Sequence record: MW250785
DNA: 64,000 bases
Source: Escherichia phage UPEC03
Direction: 5' to 3' (one strand)
Shown: in pieces, positions 11,917 through 40,451 of the stretch
Position numbering within the stretch: position 1 is the stretch's first letter
Layout: each line of letters starts with the position of its first letter
Notes under the pieces: generated by a model
Told to the model about the DNA's origin: nothing
Seen by the model: the letters and a program-made list of their open reading frames with translations, nothing else
Databases searched by the model: none
Program-made: the position numbers and the translations under genes

Positions 11917-12453
11917 TCAGTATGCAATGTTTAATTTTGCAAATTTACCAAAATGTTTTATCGCTTCCCGATCGTATGCTTTTGCAGCCTCGTATTCGTC
12001 ACGATAGGAACCGATATGTTTAACCTTGCCGTCAATCTTTATCTGTGCAATGTAACGTATTCCAGTAGGTTGATCACGTACACATACACCCTTGAATCGA
12101 CTGGTTGCTACTCTTCGTTTAGTCCGGTTCTGACAGTTTCGGGATTGATCCGCTTCACGCAAGTTATCAATCCCGTCGCCAGCCTCAACACCATTTTTAT
12201 GATCAATCACATCAGGCAGTTTTCCGGTTGCAACGTAGTAGATGATTCGATGACGTAGATATCCTTTGCTTTTGAAATAAACGCGGGTATATCCTCCTTT
12301 AATCTTCGAACCTACTTCCTTTCCGATCAAGTCAGAACGTTTGTGTGACGTTCGTATAATTGTCCCCGTTTGTATATCAACAGAAACAGTTTTAAGGAAT
12401 TCGTCAATTCCTTTCTGTTCTTCTTCGATTGTTCTTAGTCCGTTGTGTGACAT
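11917..12453 (-). CDS. HNH endonuclease with C-terminal AP2-like DNA-binding domain (homing-endonuclease-like)
   Basis: HNH-type motif ...VIDHKNGVEAGDGIDNLREA...; AP2-like FKGVCVRDQPTGIRYIAQIKIDGKVKHIGSYRDEYEAAKAYD; paralog at 26069-26593; overlaps Dcm stop by 19 nt. Confidence 0.75.
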   Translation of the reverse strand: MSHNGLRTIEEEQKGIDEFLKTVSVDIQTGTIIRTSHKRSDLIGKEVGSKIKGGYTRVYFKSKGYLRHRIIYYVATGKLPDVIDHKNGVEAGDGIDNLREADQSRNCQNRTKRRVATSRFKGVCVRDQPTGIRYIAQIKIDGKVKHIGSYRDEYEAAKAYDREAIKHFGKFAKLNIAY

Positions 12454-13358
12454 AACACCTTCTTGATTTGTTTTGCTATAGCCTCGATTACTGGTATTGA
12501 AACAGAATTACCTGCTTGTTTATACGCTTGCATCTTGCTTTTGTTGATAATAAACGAATCTGGGAAACCCTGCAAACGAAAACACTCACGGGGAGTAAGT
12601 CTTCGGGGGTTCTTTCCTTCCTGCAATACCAGACATTGAACACCATCTTTATAGTAATTTGCAGTGATAGTCCCAGTGTGCGTAGAATCGCTTGTGACGG
12701 CCTGATAACCGAAACCCTTACCGTTTGCCTTATTTCGTTCCTTACGCTCTCTAAAGCCCTTCCATGCGTTATCTGACAGGGTGAACGAATCATCAGCATC
12801 TTCGAGGATGTCGCCTACGCGTGTAGGGGTACGCGGGGGAACCGGAAACGAAAAGAATACATCATCCAGGAAGCAGACAATAAACACGCGTTCCCGTCTT
12901 TGGGGTAGTCCGAAATCCTTTGTGTTCAGGCGTTGATAGAATACGTTATATCCTTCGGCCTCCAGAAGCCCGTAAATCGTTTTAAACGTCTTCCCCTTGT
13001 CATGGGTTAGCAGTTCAGGCACGTTCTCAAAGAACAACACACGGGGCTTTTTAGCGCGTATAATGCGGAGGATTTCGAAGAACACCGTACCGCGTACATC
13101 ATCAAAGCCCAGTTTCAATCCGGCTTTACTGAACGCCTGACACGGGAACCCCGCGAGCAGGATATCATGATCAGGTACTTTGTTTTCATCAATGGCGAAT
13201 AGATCACCCTGTAGGTTATCATCGCCCCAGTTTTCGATATATGTTTGCTGTGCGAACTTGTCGATTTCAGACGTTAAAAGGCATTCGACACCGCCGAACG
13301 CCTTATCAAATCCTAATCGAACCCCGCCCACACCAGCGCAGAGGTCAATTATTTTCAT
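12435..13358 (-). CDS. DNA (cytosine-5)-methyltransferase, Dcm-type
   Basis: Motif I DLCAGVGG, motif IV GFPCQAFS, ENV motif FFENVPEL; 307 aa. Confidence 0.85.
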   Translation of the reverse strand: MKIIDLCAGVGGVRLGFDKAFGGVECLLTSEIDKFAQQTYIENWGDDNLQGDLFAIDENKVPDHDILLAGFPCQAFSKAGLKLGFDDVRGTVFFEILRIIRAKKPRVLFFENVPELLTHDKGKTFKTIYGLLEAEGYNVFYQRLNTKDFGLPQRRERVFIVCFLDDVFFSFPVPPRTPTRVGDILEDADDSFTLSDNAWKGFRERKERNKANGKGFGYQAVTSDSTHTGTITANYYKDGVQCLVLQEGKNPRRLTPRECFRLQGFPDSFIINKSKMQAYKQAGNSVSIPVIEAIAKQIKKVLCHTTD

Positions 13359-13624
13359 ACGTCAAAATCAATCTCGTCGATTTTGTATGAGTTTTCGTCA
13401 ATGTCCGCCCATAGGGTTACATTAACGTGTTTGCTATCTTCGTACAACTGGCGACCATCAATCCCGCCCGTGTAATTGCTTTCGGTACGTTCAGTAACTT
13501 CCAGTCGGAGGCTATCGCGCATGATCTGAACAACAGCCTGTTCCAGTGTAACTGCGTCTGGGTTTTTGGTATCGCCCAGTACAACATCTTTAACGTTCAA
13601 AATAATATCAGTCATTAGTGCCAC
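13355..13624 (-). CDS. Hypothetical protein (89 aa)
   Basis: Coupled ORF between nucleotidyltransferase and Dcm genes. Confidence 0.4.
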   Translation of the reverse strand: MALMTDIILNVKDVVLGDTKNPDAVTLEQAVVQIMRDSLRLEVTERTESNYTGGIDGRQLYEDSKHVNVTLWADIDENSYKIDEIDFDV

Positions 13625-13857
13625 TCCGTTTTAATACCATGTCGGTATGCGTCAATCCCCAGCGGGGTAATCAGCAACCATGCTTTCGAATTATCGTGAT
13701 AGCCCGTTACCCTTCGAGCGTAACCTTTTTGAATCAGGGCATCACGCCCTGATTTGCTGGGTACGTCATCGAAATCTAAGTCTAGCACCTTAGTTGCATA
13801 TCCGTAAAGTTTATACAGAACATCAATTTCAGCGCCGGACAATTTAGGATACATCAT
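13615..13857 (-). CDS. Hypothetical protein (80 aa)
   Basis: Coupled ORF, overlaps both neighbours by a few nt. Confidence 0.4.
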   Translation of the reverse strand: MMYPKLSGAEIDVLYKLYGYATKVLDLDFDDVPSKSGRDALIQKGYARRVTGYHDNSKAWLLITPLGIDAYRHGIKTEWH

Positions 13858-14855
13858 TTGTAATACCCCACAACATGATCGCGGTATACGCGTTCGATGA
13901 AATCGTTCCAGAATTCGCGGTCAACTTCTTTCGGATATGTTGAAATCGCTGCAAGCCGTTCGACTTCGCCCATGACTTCTTCCAGCTTTTCCTGTACGGT
14001 TGCGAACGGTACGCCGCCAGCTTTAACCAGTTTCAGGAATGCGCTATCAGGCAGAGGATAAACGATATCACCATCTTTGTAAATCTGGATCAACTGCATA
14101 CCACCGCGCAACGCGTGACTTAAAGCCTTCCAGTCGATGCCGTTGTTGGCTTCTGCTTGTCGTGCGCGTTCTCCGTATTCATCCCAGAGTTTGTACACTG
14201 ACTTACGCATTTCATCGGCTTTGATCGTGAACTGGAATTTACGCCCCAGCACTTCATAGAAGTCCTGACAACCAGATTTCATTGTCGTGTCGGTAACGAA
14301 TCGGCAGAACTCGTTTGTAGGGAAACGATTCTTGATGTCAGACACTTTCACTTCACGCGTATAGCGTTTCATATCTGGTGTGAATTCCTGAATACCACCG
14401 ATCGTTTCGGTTTCTTTCAGTACATCGACAACTTCGCGCAGTGCAGCCAGTCGGGAACCTTTCACACCATATTTTGCGGCTTGCTTGCGAACATAACCGA
14501 ACAGGCCAGTTAGTTCAGTGGTGTAAAAACGCCAGCGGTTAGCGCGGATATACTGCCAGATTTCAGAGTTAGCGATCAGCTTGTCATCCGAAGCGTGAAG
14601 CATATCGAGCGCTACGGTATCACCATCACACGCAAGGCTGATAAACTTAGTCAGACTATACAACTGACGATCAACGTCGTCTACGGTGTTTTTAGAGCTT
14701 TTATCGCCCGTGCTGGTGTCGATAGACTTCTTCGCAGTGCCTAACAGGATTTCGCGAGGATGAGGGAGATAGATCCCTTTGTAGTCTTTATCGCTTGTTG
14801 GTGTTTCCAGTCCGTAAAGATGGGATCCAAAAATCATTTCAGTAATCATTTTCAT
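13854..14855 (-). CDS. Pol-beta superfamily nucleotidyltransferase-domain protein, function unknown
   Basis: N-terminal GSHLYGLETPTSDKDYKGIY matches the G[GS]x9-13Dx[DE] NTase signature; ATG at 14855 (listed 14870 start is TTG) overlaps HNH stop as TAATG. Confidence 0.6.
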   Translation of the reverse strand: MKMITEMIFGSHLYGLETPTSDKDYKGIYLPHPREILLGTAKKSIDTSTGDKSSKNTVDDVDRQLYSLTKFISLACDGDTVALDMLHASDDKLIANSEIWQYIRANRWRFYTTELTGLFGYVRKQAAKYGVKGSRLAALREVVDVLKETETIGGIQEFTPDMKRYTREVKVSDIKNRFPTNEFCRFVTDTTMKSGCQDFYEVLGRKFQFTIKADEMRKSVYKLWDEYGERARQAEANNGIDWKALSHALRGGMQLIQIYKDGDIVYPLPDSAFLKLVKAGGVPFATVQEKLEEVMGEVERLAAISTYPKEVDREFWNDFIERVYRDHVVGYYK

Positions 14856-15613
14856 TATACAAATCTCCAATAAAACCCTTTATGAGTTTTTCTTTTACCG
14901 TTACAGCATGAACTTACATGCCCTTTGTTATACCCCATTTCAACGGCTTCCACAATACCACCATTTAAAATAGTTTCTCTTTCTGTTTTGATACATTTCA
15001 TAATCAAAGGTTTTATCAATTCCGTCTTCTTTTGTGAAATATTAGCTAATGCAATTACATTTCTGATATCAGATTCACTCATTAAATCAGAAATCTTCTT
15101 TCTTAACCATACATAGCCTTGACTTTTGGCAAGTTTGCCGGAGCAACATTCATGAATATGACTAGGGTTAAATCCACGCAATTTCATTTCTTGCCGACCG
15201 CCTAATATGATAATCTCGTCTCCTGTTTCAAGGTTGAATCCGACAACTGGAATTATTTGCCGTTCCGACATTTTCTTTCTCGCTTCTTTCGTGAATATTG
15301 TAAGAGATTTTAATTTTCTCGCGTCGCTCATTTGCGAAGATGTCGTTTTGTATTTCTTAGTATTATGAGACATACGGAAAAAAGCATATCTCATTTTATC
15401 ACCAGCATACTTAGCAAGTAGATGATGAGCAAGATAATGCTCTTTATATGTTAAATATACTAAATTTTCGGGTTCATCAGTACCACCTAATGACTTAGCA
15501 ACGATATGGTGTATATCATAACCGCGCTTTCTATACTTTTTCGAGTAACCTTTAGGTATATCTCTTCTTTTTGCCAATGTAATTAGTTGGTCGTAAATAC
15601 GCTTATAGTTCAT
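14855..15613 (-). CDS. HNH homing endonuclease-like protein
   Basis: GYDIHHIVAKSLGGTDEPENLVYLTYKEHYLAHH HNH motif; ATG at 15613 with AAAGGAGAG SD (listed start is GTG). Confidence 0.75.
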   Translation of the reverse strand: MNYKRIYDQLITLAKRRDIPKGYSKKYRKRGYDIHHIVAKSLGGTDEPENLVYLTYKEHYLAHHLLAKYAGDKMRYAFFRMSHNTKKYKTTSSQMSDARKLKSLTIFTKEARKKMSERQIIPVVGFNLETGDEIIILGGRQEMKLRGFNPSHIHECCSGKLAKSQGYVWLRKKISDLMSESDIRNVIALANISQKKTELIKPLIMKCIKTERETILNGGIVEAVEMGYNKGHVSSCCNGKRKTHKGFYWRFV

Positions 15614-15743
15614 ACACTCTCCTTTAGGCGTATTTATCACTTAAAATCCGAACACGGTTTCCATAATCATTTTCATCAGAATTCAACCTTTAATGTTTTT
15701 GCGATCCCGCGCAATTCCGCGGTAGTAATAACAGGGATCATAA

Positions 15744-16016
15744 TCATTTCCTCACAGTTTCAAATTCTTCGTCAGATTTCCAGTACACGTTAAAGTTACG
15801 GCAATCGTGGTCGGAAGTCAACGTATATTTTTCTTTTGTTTTCTCGTCGGTGATCACCATCGTTTCATTCTCGATCGAGTCCACACCATAGACGAATACT
15901 TTATCACCGCGTTTATTCAGGAACGCTTCACCTGTTTCAACCAACTGCCAGCAGTTGACGGGTAAACCACCCGCACAGATCGGACGGTTTACGAGGCAGT
16001 AAGGACGTTTAATCAT
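15744..16016 (-). CDS. Hypothetical protein (90 aa)
   Basis: ORF with ATG start. Confidence 0.4.
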   Translation of the reverse strand: MIKRPYCLVNRPICAGGLPVNCWQLVETGEAFLNKRGDKVFVYGVDSIENETMVITDEKTKEKYTLTSDHDCRNFNVYWKSDEEFETVRK

Positions 16017-16207
16017 TTAAATTCTTCCATTGCATAGGAAGTAAGATCTTTGAAATACCTTGCGGTGTTGCCTTCTGGGTTGTTTGTAATCTCCATCAGG
16101 ATAACAGCACCATCAACTCCTGCTTTCTTAGCCATGAATGAAATGGCTTCGGTAGCAATAATCGTTGCTTTCATAACATCAGCTTTAGAAACGTTGATCG
16201 TATTCAT
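16013..16207 (-). CDS. Hypothetical protein (64 aa)
   Basis: First gene downstream of module copy 2. Confidence 0.4.
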   Translation of the reverse strand: MNTINVSKADVMKATIIATEAISFMAKKAGVDGAVILMEITNNPEGNTARYFKDLTSYAMEEFK

Positions 16208-16285
16208 TTTTCTTCCTTTTCATTATTCATGCGGTATGTGTATATAATACAAAAGCCCTCACGCGAACGCAAGGGCTTTTTTAAT
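16208..16285 (-). promoter_or_regulatory. Terminator-promoter-leader module (copy 2 of 6)
   Basis: Minus strand AAAAAAGCCC-TTGCGT-N17-TATTAT after NatV stop; hairpin 16251-16282. Confidence 0.45.
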
Positions 16286-16291
16286 CTTTTA

Positions 16292-17348
16292 TCAGAGTCC
16301 CGTGAAAGCTACAACGATTTGATAGTGGTCATCGAAGAATTCCCCTTGTCGTTGTACGACCTCATGTAAGGGCATCCAGAACGCCTCTAACGCATCGTCA
16401 GAACCGCCCATAATGCGGGGCAGACTACCATCATTGTTAGGCTCTAACTTGATGTACTGCGCCACAGTCGGTTTTGAGAAGTGTACGGAACGCTTCGGAT
16501 GATCGAACAACATCGAATTGCGGATTGAACCACGGATAACCTTTTCAGGAACCTTGATCCGTACCTCTTCGAGCAGTTCGCGGATCGCACAATCCAGGAA
16601 CGTTTCATTTGCGTTTTTGTGTCCGCCGGGAAGGGCTAACGCGTCTTTACCTGGGGCGAACTTACGACGAATTACCAGCAGGTGATTGTTGCACACAACC
16701 ACACTATCACCCGTGCAACAGTTTAGCGCGTCGGGGTATGGGTAGTTTTTGAATTTCTCCAATTCGCTTTCCCATTTCTCGTATTCGTAGAATAAACGCC
16801 AGAACGTGTCTTCCATCATCCATTTGTCGATATAATCAACGGTTGCTTGAGGAACAAAGCGCAACAGTTTCTTATCCCACCCGTTTTTATGGTTAAAGAT
16901 AATCGGACGCAGATCGGTTGCTGATAGATCCTTGCCGTTAATCTGGACAGGTGGAACTGGTACGTGTGTCCATCCGAACGCTTTAAGCCAGTATGAACCT
17001 GCATCTTTTTCGTAACCGTAGATAGCGATTTTGTCGCCTTTGGTTTCCCTGATAGCAGTACGAACAGAGGTTTTCCATTTCTCTTCGTTGTAAAGATAAT
17101 CTGGAATGTGCTCAAACTGAACACGAACAACATCTTCGATCGGGAAGTTAGCGTTTAACCATGAGAAGATCATGGTTTGACGCTCACGCGCCGTCAGCGG
17201 GTTTAAAACGTTAGGGTAAGCATATGCTGAACCCAGAAGGATGTAAACGATCTTTGCTTCTCCGAGTGCTTTACGCACCATTGCTGCATGACCATTATGG
17301 AAGGGTTGGAATCTGCCAATTACGACAGCTTTATCAAATTGTTTCATA
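16292..17348 (-). CDS. natV: Bifunctional NMN adenylyltransferase / Nudix hydrolase (NatV-like)
   Basis: N-terminal cytidylyltransferase motif GRFQPFHNGH; C-terminal Nudix box GGHKNANETFLDCAIRELLEEV; ATG at 17348 with GGAG SD (listed start is GTG). Confidence 0.8.
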
Positions 17349-39512: not shown

Positions 39513-39779
39513 TTATGCTTTTGATGCATCAATCGCTTCATTATCACCAGCGATTTCTACTGTTGCTGGCAGAAGTGCTTTGATCGCGCCGATCAGGGCA
39601 TCAGGGGATACACCCTGCGAACCGTCGATTTCCAGAAGACCGCAAATCTGGCCTACGAGTTGACGGTGATTTGCCAGTTCTTGTTCTTTACCCTGAATGA
39701 TTTCGTTCAGGTCGAATACACGGGCTTTCAGGATCAGGACATCGTTTTGAAGCTGTTGGGTTTGGTTTTGTTCAGTCAT
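39513..39779 (-). CDS. Tail fibre assembly chaperone gp57A-like
   Basis: 88-aa coiled-coil protein (...DVLILKARVFDL...IGAIKALL...); resemblance to T4 gp57A is from memory; adjacent to gene 1. Confidence 0.45.
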   Translation of the reverse strand: MTEQNQTQQLQNDVLILKARVFDLNEIIQGKEQELANHRQLVGQICGLLEIDGSQGVSPDALIGAIKALLPATVEIAGDNEAIDASKA

Positions 39780-39782
39780 TGT

Positions 39783-40451
39783 TTACACTCTTAAAAGATT
39801 GAATACATTAAGCACGTTGCGTTTCAAATCGTCTAACGTACCATTATTTAGGATTGTATAATCACTCAAGCCAGGTGTCAAACCTTTCTCCGTTGAATGA
39901 TTATCTTCAATACCAGTTTCACGTTCAAGGAACACAAAGCGAGTCCCGAACTTGCTCAGGTATTTATATTCGTGCGGTTGACGCACATCGGTAATGATAA
40001 AGTGATCCGCGTAGGATTTCAACATTTTTTGAAGCGCAATTGAAGTCCAGATAGACGGATCTACTTTACAAACAATATCAGTCCCGAACACCTGCATCAA
40101 ACGGCGAATCGTCCAGGGCTGGGTGTTTTCTTCGCAAATTTTATGAGCGATAACATCTGCGTTACTCATGAAGAACCCGCGAGAACTTAATTTTTTGATA
40201 CCGCTAGAAAACAGCGTGTATGCATCGTTATTGGACATCACCAGCGGGGCTTCACGATCACCCTCATAGAATGGGTTCTTCGCTGCCAGCGCTCGCAATT
40301 GCGTGTTATCGTGATGTTCCATAGAACGTTTCAGGATAGCTTTGATTTCGTCGGCTAACGCGATAACTTCAACATTGCGGAAGTTATGCACAACCATTTG
40401 AGCAACGGTATCTTTACCCGTTCGCTTTTTACCACAAATACCATAAATCAT
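39783..40451 (-). CDS. 1: Deoxynucleoside monophosphate kinase
   Basis: P-loop GICGKKRTGKDT; IRRLMQVFGTD, TDVRQPHE and HSTEKGL parallel T4 gp1 motifs. Confidence 0.85.
   Translation of the reverse strand: MIYGICGKKRTGKDTVAQMVVHNFRNVEVIALADEIKAILKRSMEHHDNTQLRALAAKNPFYEGDREAPLVMSNNDAYTLFSSGIKKLSSRGFFMSNADVIAHKICEENTQPWTIRRLMQVFGTDIVCKVDPSIWTSIALQKMLKSYADHFIITDVRQPHEYKYLSKFGTRFVFLERETGIEDNHSTEKGLTPGLSDYTILNNGTLDDLKRNVLNVFNLLRV

Follow-up and report, generated by a model that had tools for sequence, protein, structure and literature searches.

The gene at 13854–14855 of the window—the whole stretch of 64,000 nucleotides of Escherichia phage UPEC03 (record MW250785) that was analysed—encodes a nucleotidyltransferase (NTase) which, judged from its sequence, is the Pseudotevenvirus ortholog of NrdC.11 of phage T4 and a long-form member of the RlaP family (RNA-ligase-associating Pol-beta, PF10127). 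We propose that this NrdC.11-type RlaP extends the 3'-OH of broken RNA as a third component of phage RNA repair, an explanation that, taken as a whole, we consider evenly poised between right and wrong. The gene is already catalogued and annotated, so that the window adds one more ortholog and not a discovery; the hypothesis that nucleotides are restored during phage RNA repair is also already in the literature.

The protein matches PF10127 with 44.9 bits for a gathering cut-off of 23 (E = 1.5e-11), over residues 7–129 only, i.e. profile positions 24–140 of 249, and it matches PHROG 388 over its full length (E = 2.6e-120). It is 52% identical to T4 NrdC.11 (T4p095, NP_049709; 333/336 aa, E = 6e-119), 80% identical to NrdC.11 of RB43 and 96% identical to the NTase of other Pseudotevenvirus phages, GAP161_120 being ~96% identical at the DNA level. 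Homologs were found in 1585 phage records, and 3628 representatives of 50%-identity clusters match the protein at E <= 0.001; together with the PF10127 and PHROG 388 scores, these numbers place the identification well beyond chance. Besides, 68 of 69 diverse homologs pass the gathering score of PF10127, and neither the query nor the homologs match any other Pfam family. Scans of the protein against NCBIfam and PADLOC gave no match, and searches of the PDB sequences with the protein and with its family profile returned chance-level matches only.

The homologs of RB43 and RB16 carry NrdC.11 as their source name. T4 NrdC.11 has been recognised since 2006 as a conserved ORF of T4-like phages with a nucleotidyltransferase domain, near-identical RefSeq phages annotate the protein as "nucleotidyltransferase", and a 2025 preprint labels T4 NrdC.11 "unknown function" (bioRxiv 10.64898/2025.12.29.696909). 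A previous reading of this DNA made from the sequence only had called the protein uncharacterised: this stands insofar as our literature search found no experiment on the phage NrdC.11 clade, and it fails insofar as the protein has a named T4 ortholog, a Pfam family and a RefSeq annotation.

The same sequence-only reading had announced a protein of ~330 aa with an N-terminal Pol-beta signature, and both points proved correct. In the ORF list of the window the frame runs on the minus strand from ATG at 14855 to TGA at 13854 and gives 333 aa. Its longest version reaches a TTG at 14870; we prefer the ATG as the start, because a GGAG lies 9 nt upstream and because the homologs begin with MK(T/M). 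Residues 10–29, GSHLYGLETPTSDKDYKGIY, contain G10-S11, separated by ten residues from D22-K-D24, in agreement with the pattern G[GS]x9-13Dx[DE]. In alignment A1, made of the 69 diverse homologs, G10, S11, D22 and D24 are invariant, as are Y129, R230, K243, H247 and R250 in the C-terminal part, while D60, D62 and D84 are nearly so. The acidic triad, whose absence would have spoken against the assignment, is thus intact (D22, D24, D62), and the catalytic signature of Pol-beta NTases (hG[GS], DxD, third carboxylate) is present in the phage protein. Comparison of the NTase family with canonical RlaP by hhalign (93% probability, E = 2.5e-7) places the acidic residues in register: the G/S, D22/D24 and D62 of the phage protein align to the invariant G/S, D43/D45 and D82. 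The Pfam and hhalign matches cover the N-terminal 90–129 residues only; as the C-terminal 200 residues do not align to canonical RlaP, the choice of substrate could differ between the two. The features of the locus are collected in Table 1.

Table 1. Features of the NTase locus (window coordinates).
Feature	Position	Strand	Evidence
Dcm	12435-13358		PF00145, 3.3e-92
86-aa ORF (ATG start; 89 aa from GTG)	13355..13615	-	PHROG 7342
80-aa ORF, restricted to this phage genus	13615..13857	-	PHROG 4365
NrdC.11-type RlaP nucleotidyltransferase CDS, 333 aa	13854..14855	-	ORF; PF10127; PHROG 388; similarity to T4 NrdC.11; AF2 model
Codon of D62, putative third catalytic carboxylate	14670..14672	-	Alignment A1; hhalign; AF2 model strand E61-67
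Codons of the NTase signature: G10-S11 (14828-14823), D22-x-D24 (14792-14784)	14784..14828	-	Alignment A1; hhalign
HNH homing-endonuclease ORF, mobile cassette; likely start ATG 15613, giving 252 aa	14855..15640	-	PHROG 655; PF01844; PF22083
Shine-Dalgarno GGAG, 9 nt 5' of the NTase ATG 14855	14865..14868	-	Sequence reading
Remnant of the original 5' end of the NTase gene, truncated (MKMIMETVFGF, then stop), upstream of the HNH cassette	15641..15676	-	Sequence; translation; comparison with GAP161

[quoted passage not shown] The repair role of RlaP is only partly demonstrated in this preprint, which places T4 NrdC.11 in cluster 5 of its SSN and the bacterial RlaP in cluster 1a. By analogy with these two assayed enzymes, RNA would be the substrate of the phage NTase; we likewise infer how many nucleotides it would add, and that it would serve in counter-defence.

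Relatives of the NTase encoded outside phages strengthen this orientation. Full-length relatives, 25–45% identical, are encoded at 70 cellular or MAG loci, nine of which have an RNA ligase within 8 kb, where rough reasoning predicts less than one by chance. Within this distance we found RtcB (loci L020, L033, L038, L068), Pnkp (L020, L040, L069) and a PF09414 ligase (L037, L045, L069, L073), and the ligases are accompanied by RtcA, Ro60, RtcR and Hen1. A candidate "RtcB" beside L047 proved on inspection to encode a solute-binding protein and was excluded from the count. Most of the 70 loci have unrelated neighbours and no ligase. Nevertheless the cellular relatives point to RNA repair rather than to the roles suggested from the sequence alone—signal synthase or decoy, nucleotidylating modifier, minimal-NTase toxin/antitoxin—which found no support in Pfam or PADLOC.

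The scarcity of ligases near most cellular loci, and the fact that the phage gene does not lie beside RnlA or PseT, would also suit a function independent of ligation: general tailing of RNA 3' ends, or a CCA-like repair of tRNA 3' ends, in which nucleotides joined to tRNA or mRNA termini would either mend acceptor ends damaged by host toxins or mark host transcripts for decay. The NTase chemistry would be the same, and bacterial RlaPs do accept any NTP when they label single-stranded RNAs and species of rRNA or tRNA size (bioRxiv 10.64898/2025.12.29.696909). Yet ligase-based repair operons are the only recurrent functional context of the cellular relatives, and, when an anticodon loop is cleaved, the bacterial RlaP favours the 3' end at the cut rather than the acceptor-side fragment (same preprint). 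In addition the protein has no Pfam or NCBIfam match to the families of CCA-adding enzymes or poly(A) polymerases (PF01743 and relatives), and the structures of eukaryotic PAP and TUTase are reached with Foldseek E > 0.09 and a TM-score of ~0.1 only. We therefore judge tailing or CCA-like repair unlikely; Pfam bears out the initial opinion that the protein looks like none of the CCA-adding enzymes, ligases and canonical polymerases.

The cellular long forms have another habit: the gene most often found directly beside them encodes a second RlaP, of the canonical kind (14 of 105 neighbours), and ~15 loci carry such a short canonical RlaP in tandem. No second canonical RlaP was found in the window, in GAP161 (1–100 kb) or in T4 (42–58 kb). 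Since the bacterial long form usually comes with the short one, unlike in the phage sequence examined, the long form alone may act differently. Long forms of the NrdC.11 type may have a function distinct from that of other RlaPs and serve T4-like phages on their own.

The AF2 model of the protein (pLDDT 93.5) consists of an NTase domain, with D62 on the beta strand E61-67, and a helical domain (helices 213–332, including a terminal helix 313–332), plus an extra beta-rich segment at ~153–210. The crystal structure of PfRlaP is described as having a C-terminal helical domain, whose final helix packs back on the NTase domain and forms a cleft (bioRxiv 10.64898/2025.12.29.696909). The best solved fold matches of the model are template-independent NTases, and the first of them is HalB of the Hailong system (PDB 9dbh/9dbj), a defence NTase that synthesises oligodeoxyadenylate. 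This match, and the fact that neither the beta-rich insert nor the last 200 residues have a characterised counterpart, are the grounds for considering that NrdC.11 is a synthase like HalB, making a nucleotide signal or oligonucleotide as counter-defence, for example oligodeoxyadenylate that would keep the Hailong HalA channel closed. The resemblance holds at the fold level only (13% identity, TM-score ~0.3, Foldseek E at best 5e-3); the PDB and PADLOC searches detect no likeness in sequence to HalB, a host defence protein of 217 aa which works with the membrane channel HalA, and no such partner was found for the NTase of the window. Moreover, no PADLOC model was matched, both the sequence family and the gene neighbourhoods in cells speak for RNA repair, and the assayed RlaPs require an RNA 3'-OH as primer and stop after one or two additions. 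HalB is the sole result in favour of the signal synthase or decoy imagined at the outset: no CD-NTase was listed among the solved-structure fold matches, nor was any CD-NTase matched by sequence. Counter-defence of this type thus appears very unlikely; that NrdC.11 would work as a primer-independent oligonucleotide synthase, with a product that imitates an immune signal of the host or restores its level, shutting for instance HalA, appears less likely still.

Weaker fold matches than HalB and the structural-genomics protein 3c18 bring to mind a modifier of small molecules or proteins, which would act as an aminoglycoside or lincosamide NTase, by AMPylation of the DrrA type, or by AMPylation of a HEPN toxin as MNT does. 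These matches reflect the common architecture of an NTase joined to a helical bundle, and MNT and HEPN proteins appear in them at the domain level only. Pfam and PADLOC gave no match to the MNT, AbiEii or ANT families, no HEPN or AbiEi partner adjoins the NTase gene, and proteins of E. coli are not substrates of bacterial RlaPs (bioRxiv 10.64898/2025.12.29.696909). The kanamycin/aminoglycoside enzyme ANT(4'), whose substrates are small molecules, and 3c18 share with the phage protein neither a sequence family nor a gene context. A modifying function is, to our mind, very improbable.

The neighbours of the NTase gene in the window are an HNH gene, two small ORFs, Dcm and NMNAT/Nudix, and no RNA ligase adjoins it among them. 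The HNH frame has its stronger match to PHROG 655 (2.8e-34) and weak to borderline ones to PF01844 (HNH) and PF22083 (I-HmuI NUMOD-like); phi1_146015 annotates an ortholog of 759 nt, while GAP161 and many close relatives lack it. Its stop codon TAA (14857–14855) overlaps the ATG of the NTase (14855–14853), forming TAATG. On its far side lies the remnant listed in Table 1, in a region matching at 78% the start of the GAP161 NTase and the 3' end of gene 121. This arrangement marks the HNH ORF as a homing-endonuclease cassette that entered the 5' end of the NTase gene, and not as a functional partner. The overlap noticed initially is real, but the link between the two genes is incidental: the cassette structure and the absence from close relatives led us to reject translational coupling as a sign of partnership.

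On the other side, the two small ORFs followed by Dcm are arranged as first described. The ATGA at 13857–13854 is common to the stop of the NTase and the start of the 80-aa ORF, which has no Pfam or PADLOC match, and a TAATG at 13617–13613 is common to the stop of this ORF and the start of the next. A promoter scan gave 11 sites for 10.1 expected from shuffled sequence, no better than chance, and no tRNA gene was found in the window.

With Dcm and HNH genes nearby, one might wonder if the enzyme works as a terminal transferase on the ends of phage or host DNA, for example in replication, in recombination or as a protection against exonucleases; HalB, whose solved fold is the closest, synthesises DNA, and dATP can be used as donor by the bacterial RlaP. 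However, neither of these DNA genes is a conserved partner, since the HNH gene is a mobile insertion and Dcm is missing from the T4 and T6 loci, and bacterial RlaPs left DNA ends, genomic or synthetic, unextended with ATP, UTP or dATP (for donor and DNA ends, bioRxiv 10.64898/2025.12.29.696909). We find action on DNA ends scarcely probable.

PseT and RnlA of T4 were the first RNA-repair system to be discovered. GAP161, whose DNA is ~96–98% identical to the window, encodes both, ~27 kb from its NTase gene; among the nearest relatives, Banach has PseT and CYPEBC003 has RnlA. The counts of NrdC.11, PseT and RnlA per genus run in parallel, which we rejected as a mark of functional linkage, all three being conserved in T4-like phages by shared descent. 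In the laboratory, T4 tolerates deletion of its segment nrdC.11-mobD.3 (PMC9825161).

In the RNA-repair explanation that we favour, the N-terminal Pol-beta domain (G10-S11, D22, D24, D62) would bind two divalent metal ions and an NTP, and the basic C-terminal helical domain (R230, K243, H247, R250) together with the beta-rich insert would hold the RNA and the triphosphate, allowing the untemplated transfer of one or a few NMPs to the 3'-OH of a broken RNA. During infection PseT (polynucleotide kinase/3'-phosphatase) would first convert the ends of cleaved tRNA to 3'-OH and 5'-P, NrdC.11 would next restore the nucleotides excised by RloC-type anticodon nucleases of the host, and RnlA would lastly seal the tRNA break. 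These nucleases excise a nucleotide after cutting, which is expected to defeat simple religation (bioRxiv 10.64898/2025.12.29.696909; PMC7824862), and in jumbo phages the distribution of RlaP mirrors that of RNA ligases, with the prediction that it restores nucleotides excised by RloC (PMC7824862). If NrdC.11 were shown to add the lost nucleotide back, the classic PseT/RnlA pathway would be completed and the wide retention of the gene explained.

Compared with bacterial RlaP, as in the rtcB-rlaP-rtcA operons of P. fluorescens and P. aeruginosa, the phage protein is ~60–70 aa longer, with the beta-rich segment and the unaligned C-terminal part described above; its gene is not in an operon with a ligase, and the two stand apart in the SSN (clusters 5 and 1a). 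They share PF10127, the GS...DxD...D residues in register and probably, to judge from the model, the succession of an NTase and a helical domain; and the cellular relatives of the phage protein are found in operons with RtcB, Pnkp/Hen1 or RNA ligase. The locus of the window and that of T4 NrdC.11 differ downstream, where the genus-specific small ORFs and Dcm stand here and nrdC.10 stands in T4 and T6, in the place of the 80-aa ORF; the upstream HNH endonuclease also differs from MobD of T4, to which it is 40% identical over the first 80 aa. The two proteins are similar over their full length, nearly equal in size (333 and 336 aa) and endowed with the same PF10127 domain, a homing endonuclease of HNH type lies directly upstream in both genomes, and the gene occupies the same place 3' of the tk-rI block, an order that T6, T4 and GAP161 have in common.

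The window is about 96-98% identical in DNA to Cronobacter phage GAP161, a Pseudotevenvirus (RB43/RB16 group of the T4-like phages), except for a few swapped cassettes. The sequence-only reading had considered its 333-aa nucleotidyltransferase (NTase) as uncharacterised, but the gene, NrdC.11/RlaP, is a known one in T4-like phages, already catalogued and named, as attested by its family matches, its orthologs and earlier reports. The protein matches PF10127 (RlaP, "RNA repair pathway DNA polymerase beta family") at 44.9 bits, for a curated cut-off of 23, and PHROG 388 ("nucleotidyltransferase") along its entire length (2.6e-120); it is 52% identical to T4 NrdC.11 over the full length (6e-119) and 80% identical to RB43 NrdC.11, and its GAP161 counterpart, GAP161_120, is annotated "nucleotidyltransferase, similar to NrdC.11". 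A 2006 paper (PMC1524935) already described the NrdC.11 orthologs as ORFs that are conserved among T4-like phages and carry a nucleotidyltransferase domain, COG3541, and the nrdC.11-mobD.3 block of T4 is deletable in the laboratory (PMC9825161); our literature search found no experimental work on the phage NrdC.11 protein. Homologs occur in 1585 of 50,697 phage records, chiefly T4-like phages of enterobacteria, Aeromonas, Acinetobacter and Vibrio, and the wider family counts 3628 cluster representatives at E <= 0.001, 803 of them at E <= 1e-30.

The ORF stands where the first reading had placed it, on the minus strand, a detail which that reading left out. The longest frame reaches back to a TTG at 14870; we nevertheless prefer the ATG at 14855, which has a GGAG 9 nt before it (14868-14865) and agrees with the MK(T/M) start of the homologs. 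The announced order downstream, two small ORFs then Dcm, is also seen. These small ORFs are specific to the genus, since T4 and T6 carry nrdC.10 in that place, and Pfam, PHROG and PADLOC searches detected no domain in either. The 80-aa ORF, without Pfam match, has a sequence pattern (…SGRDALIQKGYARRV…WLLITPLGIDAY…) that may recall a small winged-helix protein, which is an impression only.

Features of the NTase region in the UPEC03 window
Feature	Position	Strand	Remarks
NMN adenylyltransferase (cytidylyltransferase-like domain) + Nudix, bifunctional, 355 aa	16292-17359	minus	on HNH upstream side, two small genes between
Terminator-like hairpin, strong	16280-16251		13 bp stem; end of the preceding gene
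Truncated NTase 5' end, MKMIMETVFGF*	15676-15641	minus	upstream of HNH ORF
HNH cassette as compared	14820-15735	minus	versus GAP161 15353-16586
NTase CDS, 333 aa	14855-13854	minus	
80-aa ORF	13615-13857	minus	start overlaps NTase stop (ATGA); PHROG 4365
86-aa ORF			downstream of 80-aa ORF; its start shares TAATG with the 80-aa ORF stop
Dcm methyltransferase	12435-13358		downstream of 86-aa ORF; PF00145, 3.3e-92
Homing-type endonuclease (HNH_3/AP2-like), 178 aa	11917-12453	minus	directly 3' of Dcm

The TAATG in which the HNH ORF, lying upstream, has its stop and the NTase its start is present as described; we rejected it as a sign of a partnership between the two genes, the overlap being a by-product of cassette insertion. 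The HNH ORF has a clear match to PHROG 655 (2.8e-34) and weak to borderline Pfam matches (HNH, I-HmuI NUMOD-like domain). GAP161 lacks it, as do many of the other close relatives, and three small genes occupy the site there. The window has lost GAP161 genes 122-123 altogether and gene 121 for the most part. Just upstream of the HNH ORF lie the surviving 3' end of the GAP161_121 homolog and then the truncated NTase start, while the functional start, downstream of the cassette, is a recoded copy, MKMITEMIFGSH. The cassette has thus gone into the codons for F-G-S-H-L-Y-G, a conserved motif, and restores the 5' end of the NTase gene, which is the behaviour of a homing endonuclease. On the same side of nrdC.11, T4 carries a different, unrelated-looking HNH, MobD (40% identity over 80 aa), which points to the conserved 5' end of the NTase gene as a target of repeated homing. 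As the 178-aa endonuclease lies on the other side, the Dcm-NTase block is flanked by mobile endonuclease cassettes on both sides; that second gene takes the place of GAP161_116 (544 bp in the window versus 445 bp in GAP161). Beyond the HNH ORF, the NMN adenylyltransferase/Nudix protein may serve the phage in NAD salvage or counter-defence.

NTase residues 10-29, GSHLYGLETPTSDKDYKGIY, display the nucleotidyltransferase signature G[GS]x9-13Dx[DE] recognised by the sequence-only reading: G10-S11, ten residues, D22-x-D24. In an alignment of 69 homologs (33-80% identity), G10, S11, S21, D22, D24, W100, Y129, R230, K243, H247, R250 and P267 are invariant and D60, D62, D84, K128 and R135 nearly so. 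The acidic triad, whose absence would have counted against the first assignment, is in place (D22, D24 and, as putative third carboxylate, D62), and the active site is intact. The family aligns with canonical short RlaPs by profile-profile comparison (hhalign, 93% probability, E = 2.5e-7, first 90 columns), D22, D24 and D62 facing their invariant D43, D45 and D82. Besides, 68 of the 69 homologs match PF10127, and none matches another Pfam family. Judging from sequence and model the enzyme looks active, and we consider it very probably an active nucleotidyltransferase of the RlaP family.

In the confident AlphaFold2 model (pLDDT 93.5, pTM 0.84) an alpha/beta NTase domain comes first, at the N-terminus, then a beta-rich segment (about 153-210), then a helical C-terminal domain with a long last helix. 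A sequence-level PDB search returned no related entry, and Foldseek matches of the model reach E-values of 5e-3 at best and TM-scores of about 0.3; the C-terminal two-thirds are without characterised counterpart. A match at this fold level, at 13% identity, is all that suggests a synthase of oligonucleotides or signals like HalB, the Hailong defence nucleotidyltransferase (PDB 9dbh/9dbj) and the best match among solved structures; with neither PADLOC nor gene context behind it, such a role, and with it the signal synthase or decoy first imagined, is very improbable. Just as improbable is the nucleotidylation of small molecules or proteins, for which the fold matches (ANT, LinB, DrrA, MNT-like) are still weaker than that of HalB and a partner gene is lacking; the nucleotidylating modifier and the minimal toxin/antitoxin module proposed earlier lose ground likewise. 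Pfam, NCBIfam and PADLOC searches matched the NTase to no CD-NTase, MNT/AbiEii or CCA-adding family, the last in agreement with the first reading.

A December 2025 preprint (bioRxiv 10.64898/2025.12.29.696909) dealt with two RlaPs whose genes lie between rtcB and rtcA, from Pseudomonas fluorescens and P. aeruginosa: with Mn2+ or Co2+ as preferred metal they add 1-2 NMPs (or dNMPs) to RNA 3'-OH ends, act by preference on the 3' end where an anticodon loop has been cleaved, leave DNA and protein unmodified, and partly restore aminoacylation of a tRNA lacking one anticodon-loop nucleotide. According to its authors the 3'-OH products fit ligases acting on 5'-phosphate ends; in their clustering by sequence similarity T4 NrdC.11 stands apart (cluster 5 versus 1a), and they call its function unknown. 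Since the assayed RlaPs do not use DNA, extension of DNA ends by the phage enzyme is disfavoured, and the least probable role that we considered.

We scanned one genome per prokaryotic species, clustering the flanking ORFs and annotating the recurrent ones. Full-length relatives of the NTase (25-45% identity) were found at 70 cellular loci (L-numbers below), many ending early at contig ends, and including isolate chromosomes of Mesorhizobium, Allorhizobium, Bradyrhizobium and Candidatus Odyssella. At 9 of the 70 an RNA ligase lies within 8 kb, three unrelated ligase families being represented. RtcB is near the long NTase in L020, L033, L038 and L068, Pnkp in L020, L040 and L069, and a PF09414 ligase with a PHA02142 OB domain in L037, L045, L069 and L073. 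Bacterial genomes hold very few RNA ligase genes, so that by rough reasoning, rather than by a computed statistic, chance would give less than one such locus in 70. The NrdC.11-type clade therefore shows the RNA-ligase association that gave RlaP its name.

Among 105 immediate neighbours PF10127 (14) is the sole strongly recurrent family, radical SAM and RtcB appearing 3 and 2 times. In L012, L017, L020, L030, L033, L038, L046, L047, L051, L053, L060, L066 and L069 (also L043 and L050) the next gene after the long form (about 325 aa) encodes a canonical short RlaP of about 270 aa that matches PF10127 over its full length (down to 3e-84); stop and start of the pair frequently overlap by 4 nt. 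Alignment between the two forms is confined to the N-terminal 90 columns, and their pairing could mean that two enzymes share the work or that they form a heterodimer. Complete repair operons can be made out: they read RtcR (divergent), Ro60/TROVE, RtcB, long NTase, short RlaP in L033; RtcR, Ro60, RtcB, RtcA, long NTase, short RlaP, Hen1, with Pnkp further on, in L020; and Hen1, Pnkp, long NTase, short RlaP, RNA ligase in L069. Two Desulfobacterales MAG loci (L021 5137-7986, L024 1266-3972) have a PHP-domain protein, RNase III and a radical-SAM protein 5' of the long NTase on the same strand, which may be an RNA-processing context other than the Rtc and Pnkp/Hen1 operons.

The phage genus of the window holds the classic T4 repair pair, RNA ligase RnlA and kinase/3'-phosphatase PseT (GAP161_068 and GAP161_072); of the close relatives, Banach carries PseT and CYPEBC003 RnlA, each at 100% identity. 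After cleavage of a tRNA by a host anticodon nuclease, possibly with a nucleotide trimmed, PseT would turn the ends into 3'-OH and 5'-P, NrdC.11 would re-add one or two nucleotides without template, and RnlA would seal the break. The results above establish the family membership, intact active site, fold, cellular operon context and occurrence of RnlA and PseT in the genus; RNA as substrate, the number of additions and a counter-defence role are inferred by analogy. We give this full scheme an even chance. A comparative study reported that in jumbo phages the distribution of RlaP mirrors that of RNA ligases, and predicted that RlaP puts back, ahead of ligation, nucleotides taken by nucleases such as RloC (PMC7824862). 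On the other hand rnlA and pseT are about 27 kb distant from the NTase gene (in GAP161), which weakens the scheme, and the parallel genus counts of NrdC.11, PseT and RnlA reflect shared ancestry only. Tailing of RNA independently of a ligase, or repair of acceptor ends, is a rather unlikely alternative. GAP161_179 (39752-40375, collinear with an estimated 38.8-39.5 kb of the window), annotated "RNA ligase" in RefSeq, should not count as a ligase near the NTase: it is a homolog of T4 57B, the anti-CBASS phosphodiesterase Acb1, so that the annotation is probably misleading.

Two further points weaken the repair scheme for the phage. The C-terminal 200 residues of its NTase fail to align with the assayed RlaPs, and in bacteria the long form is mostly found beside a short canonical RlaP, whereas no second, short RlaP was found in the phage sequence examined. 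Whether NrdC.11 joins PseT and RnlA as a third player in RNA repair by the phage is a question worth testing, and already posed in the literature.
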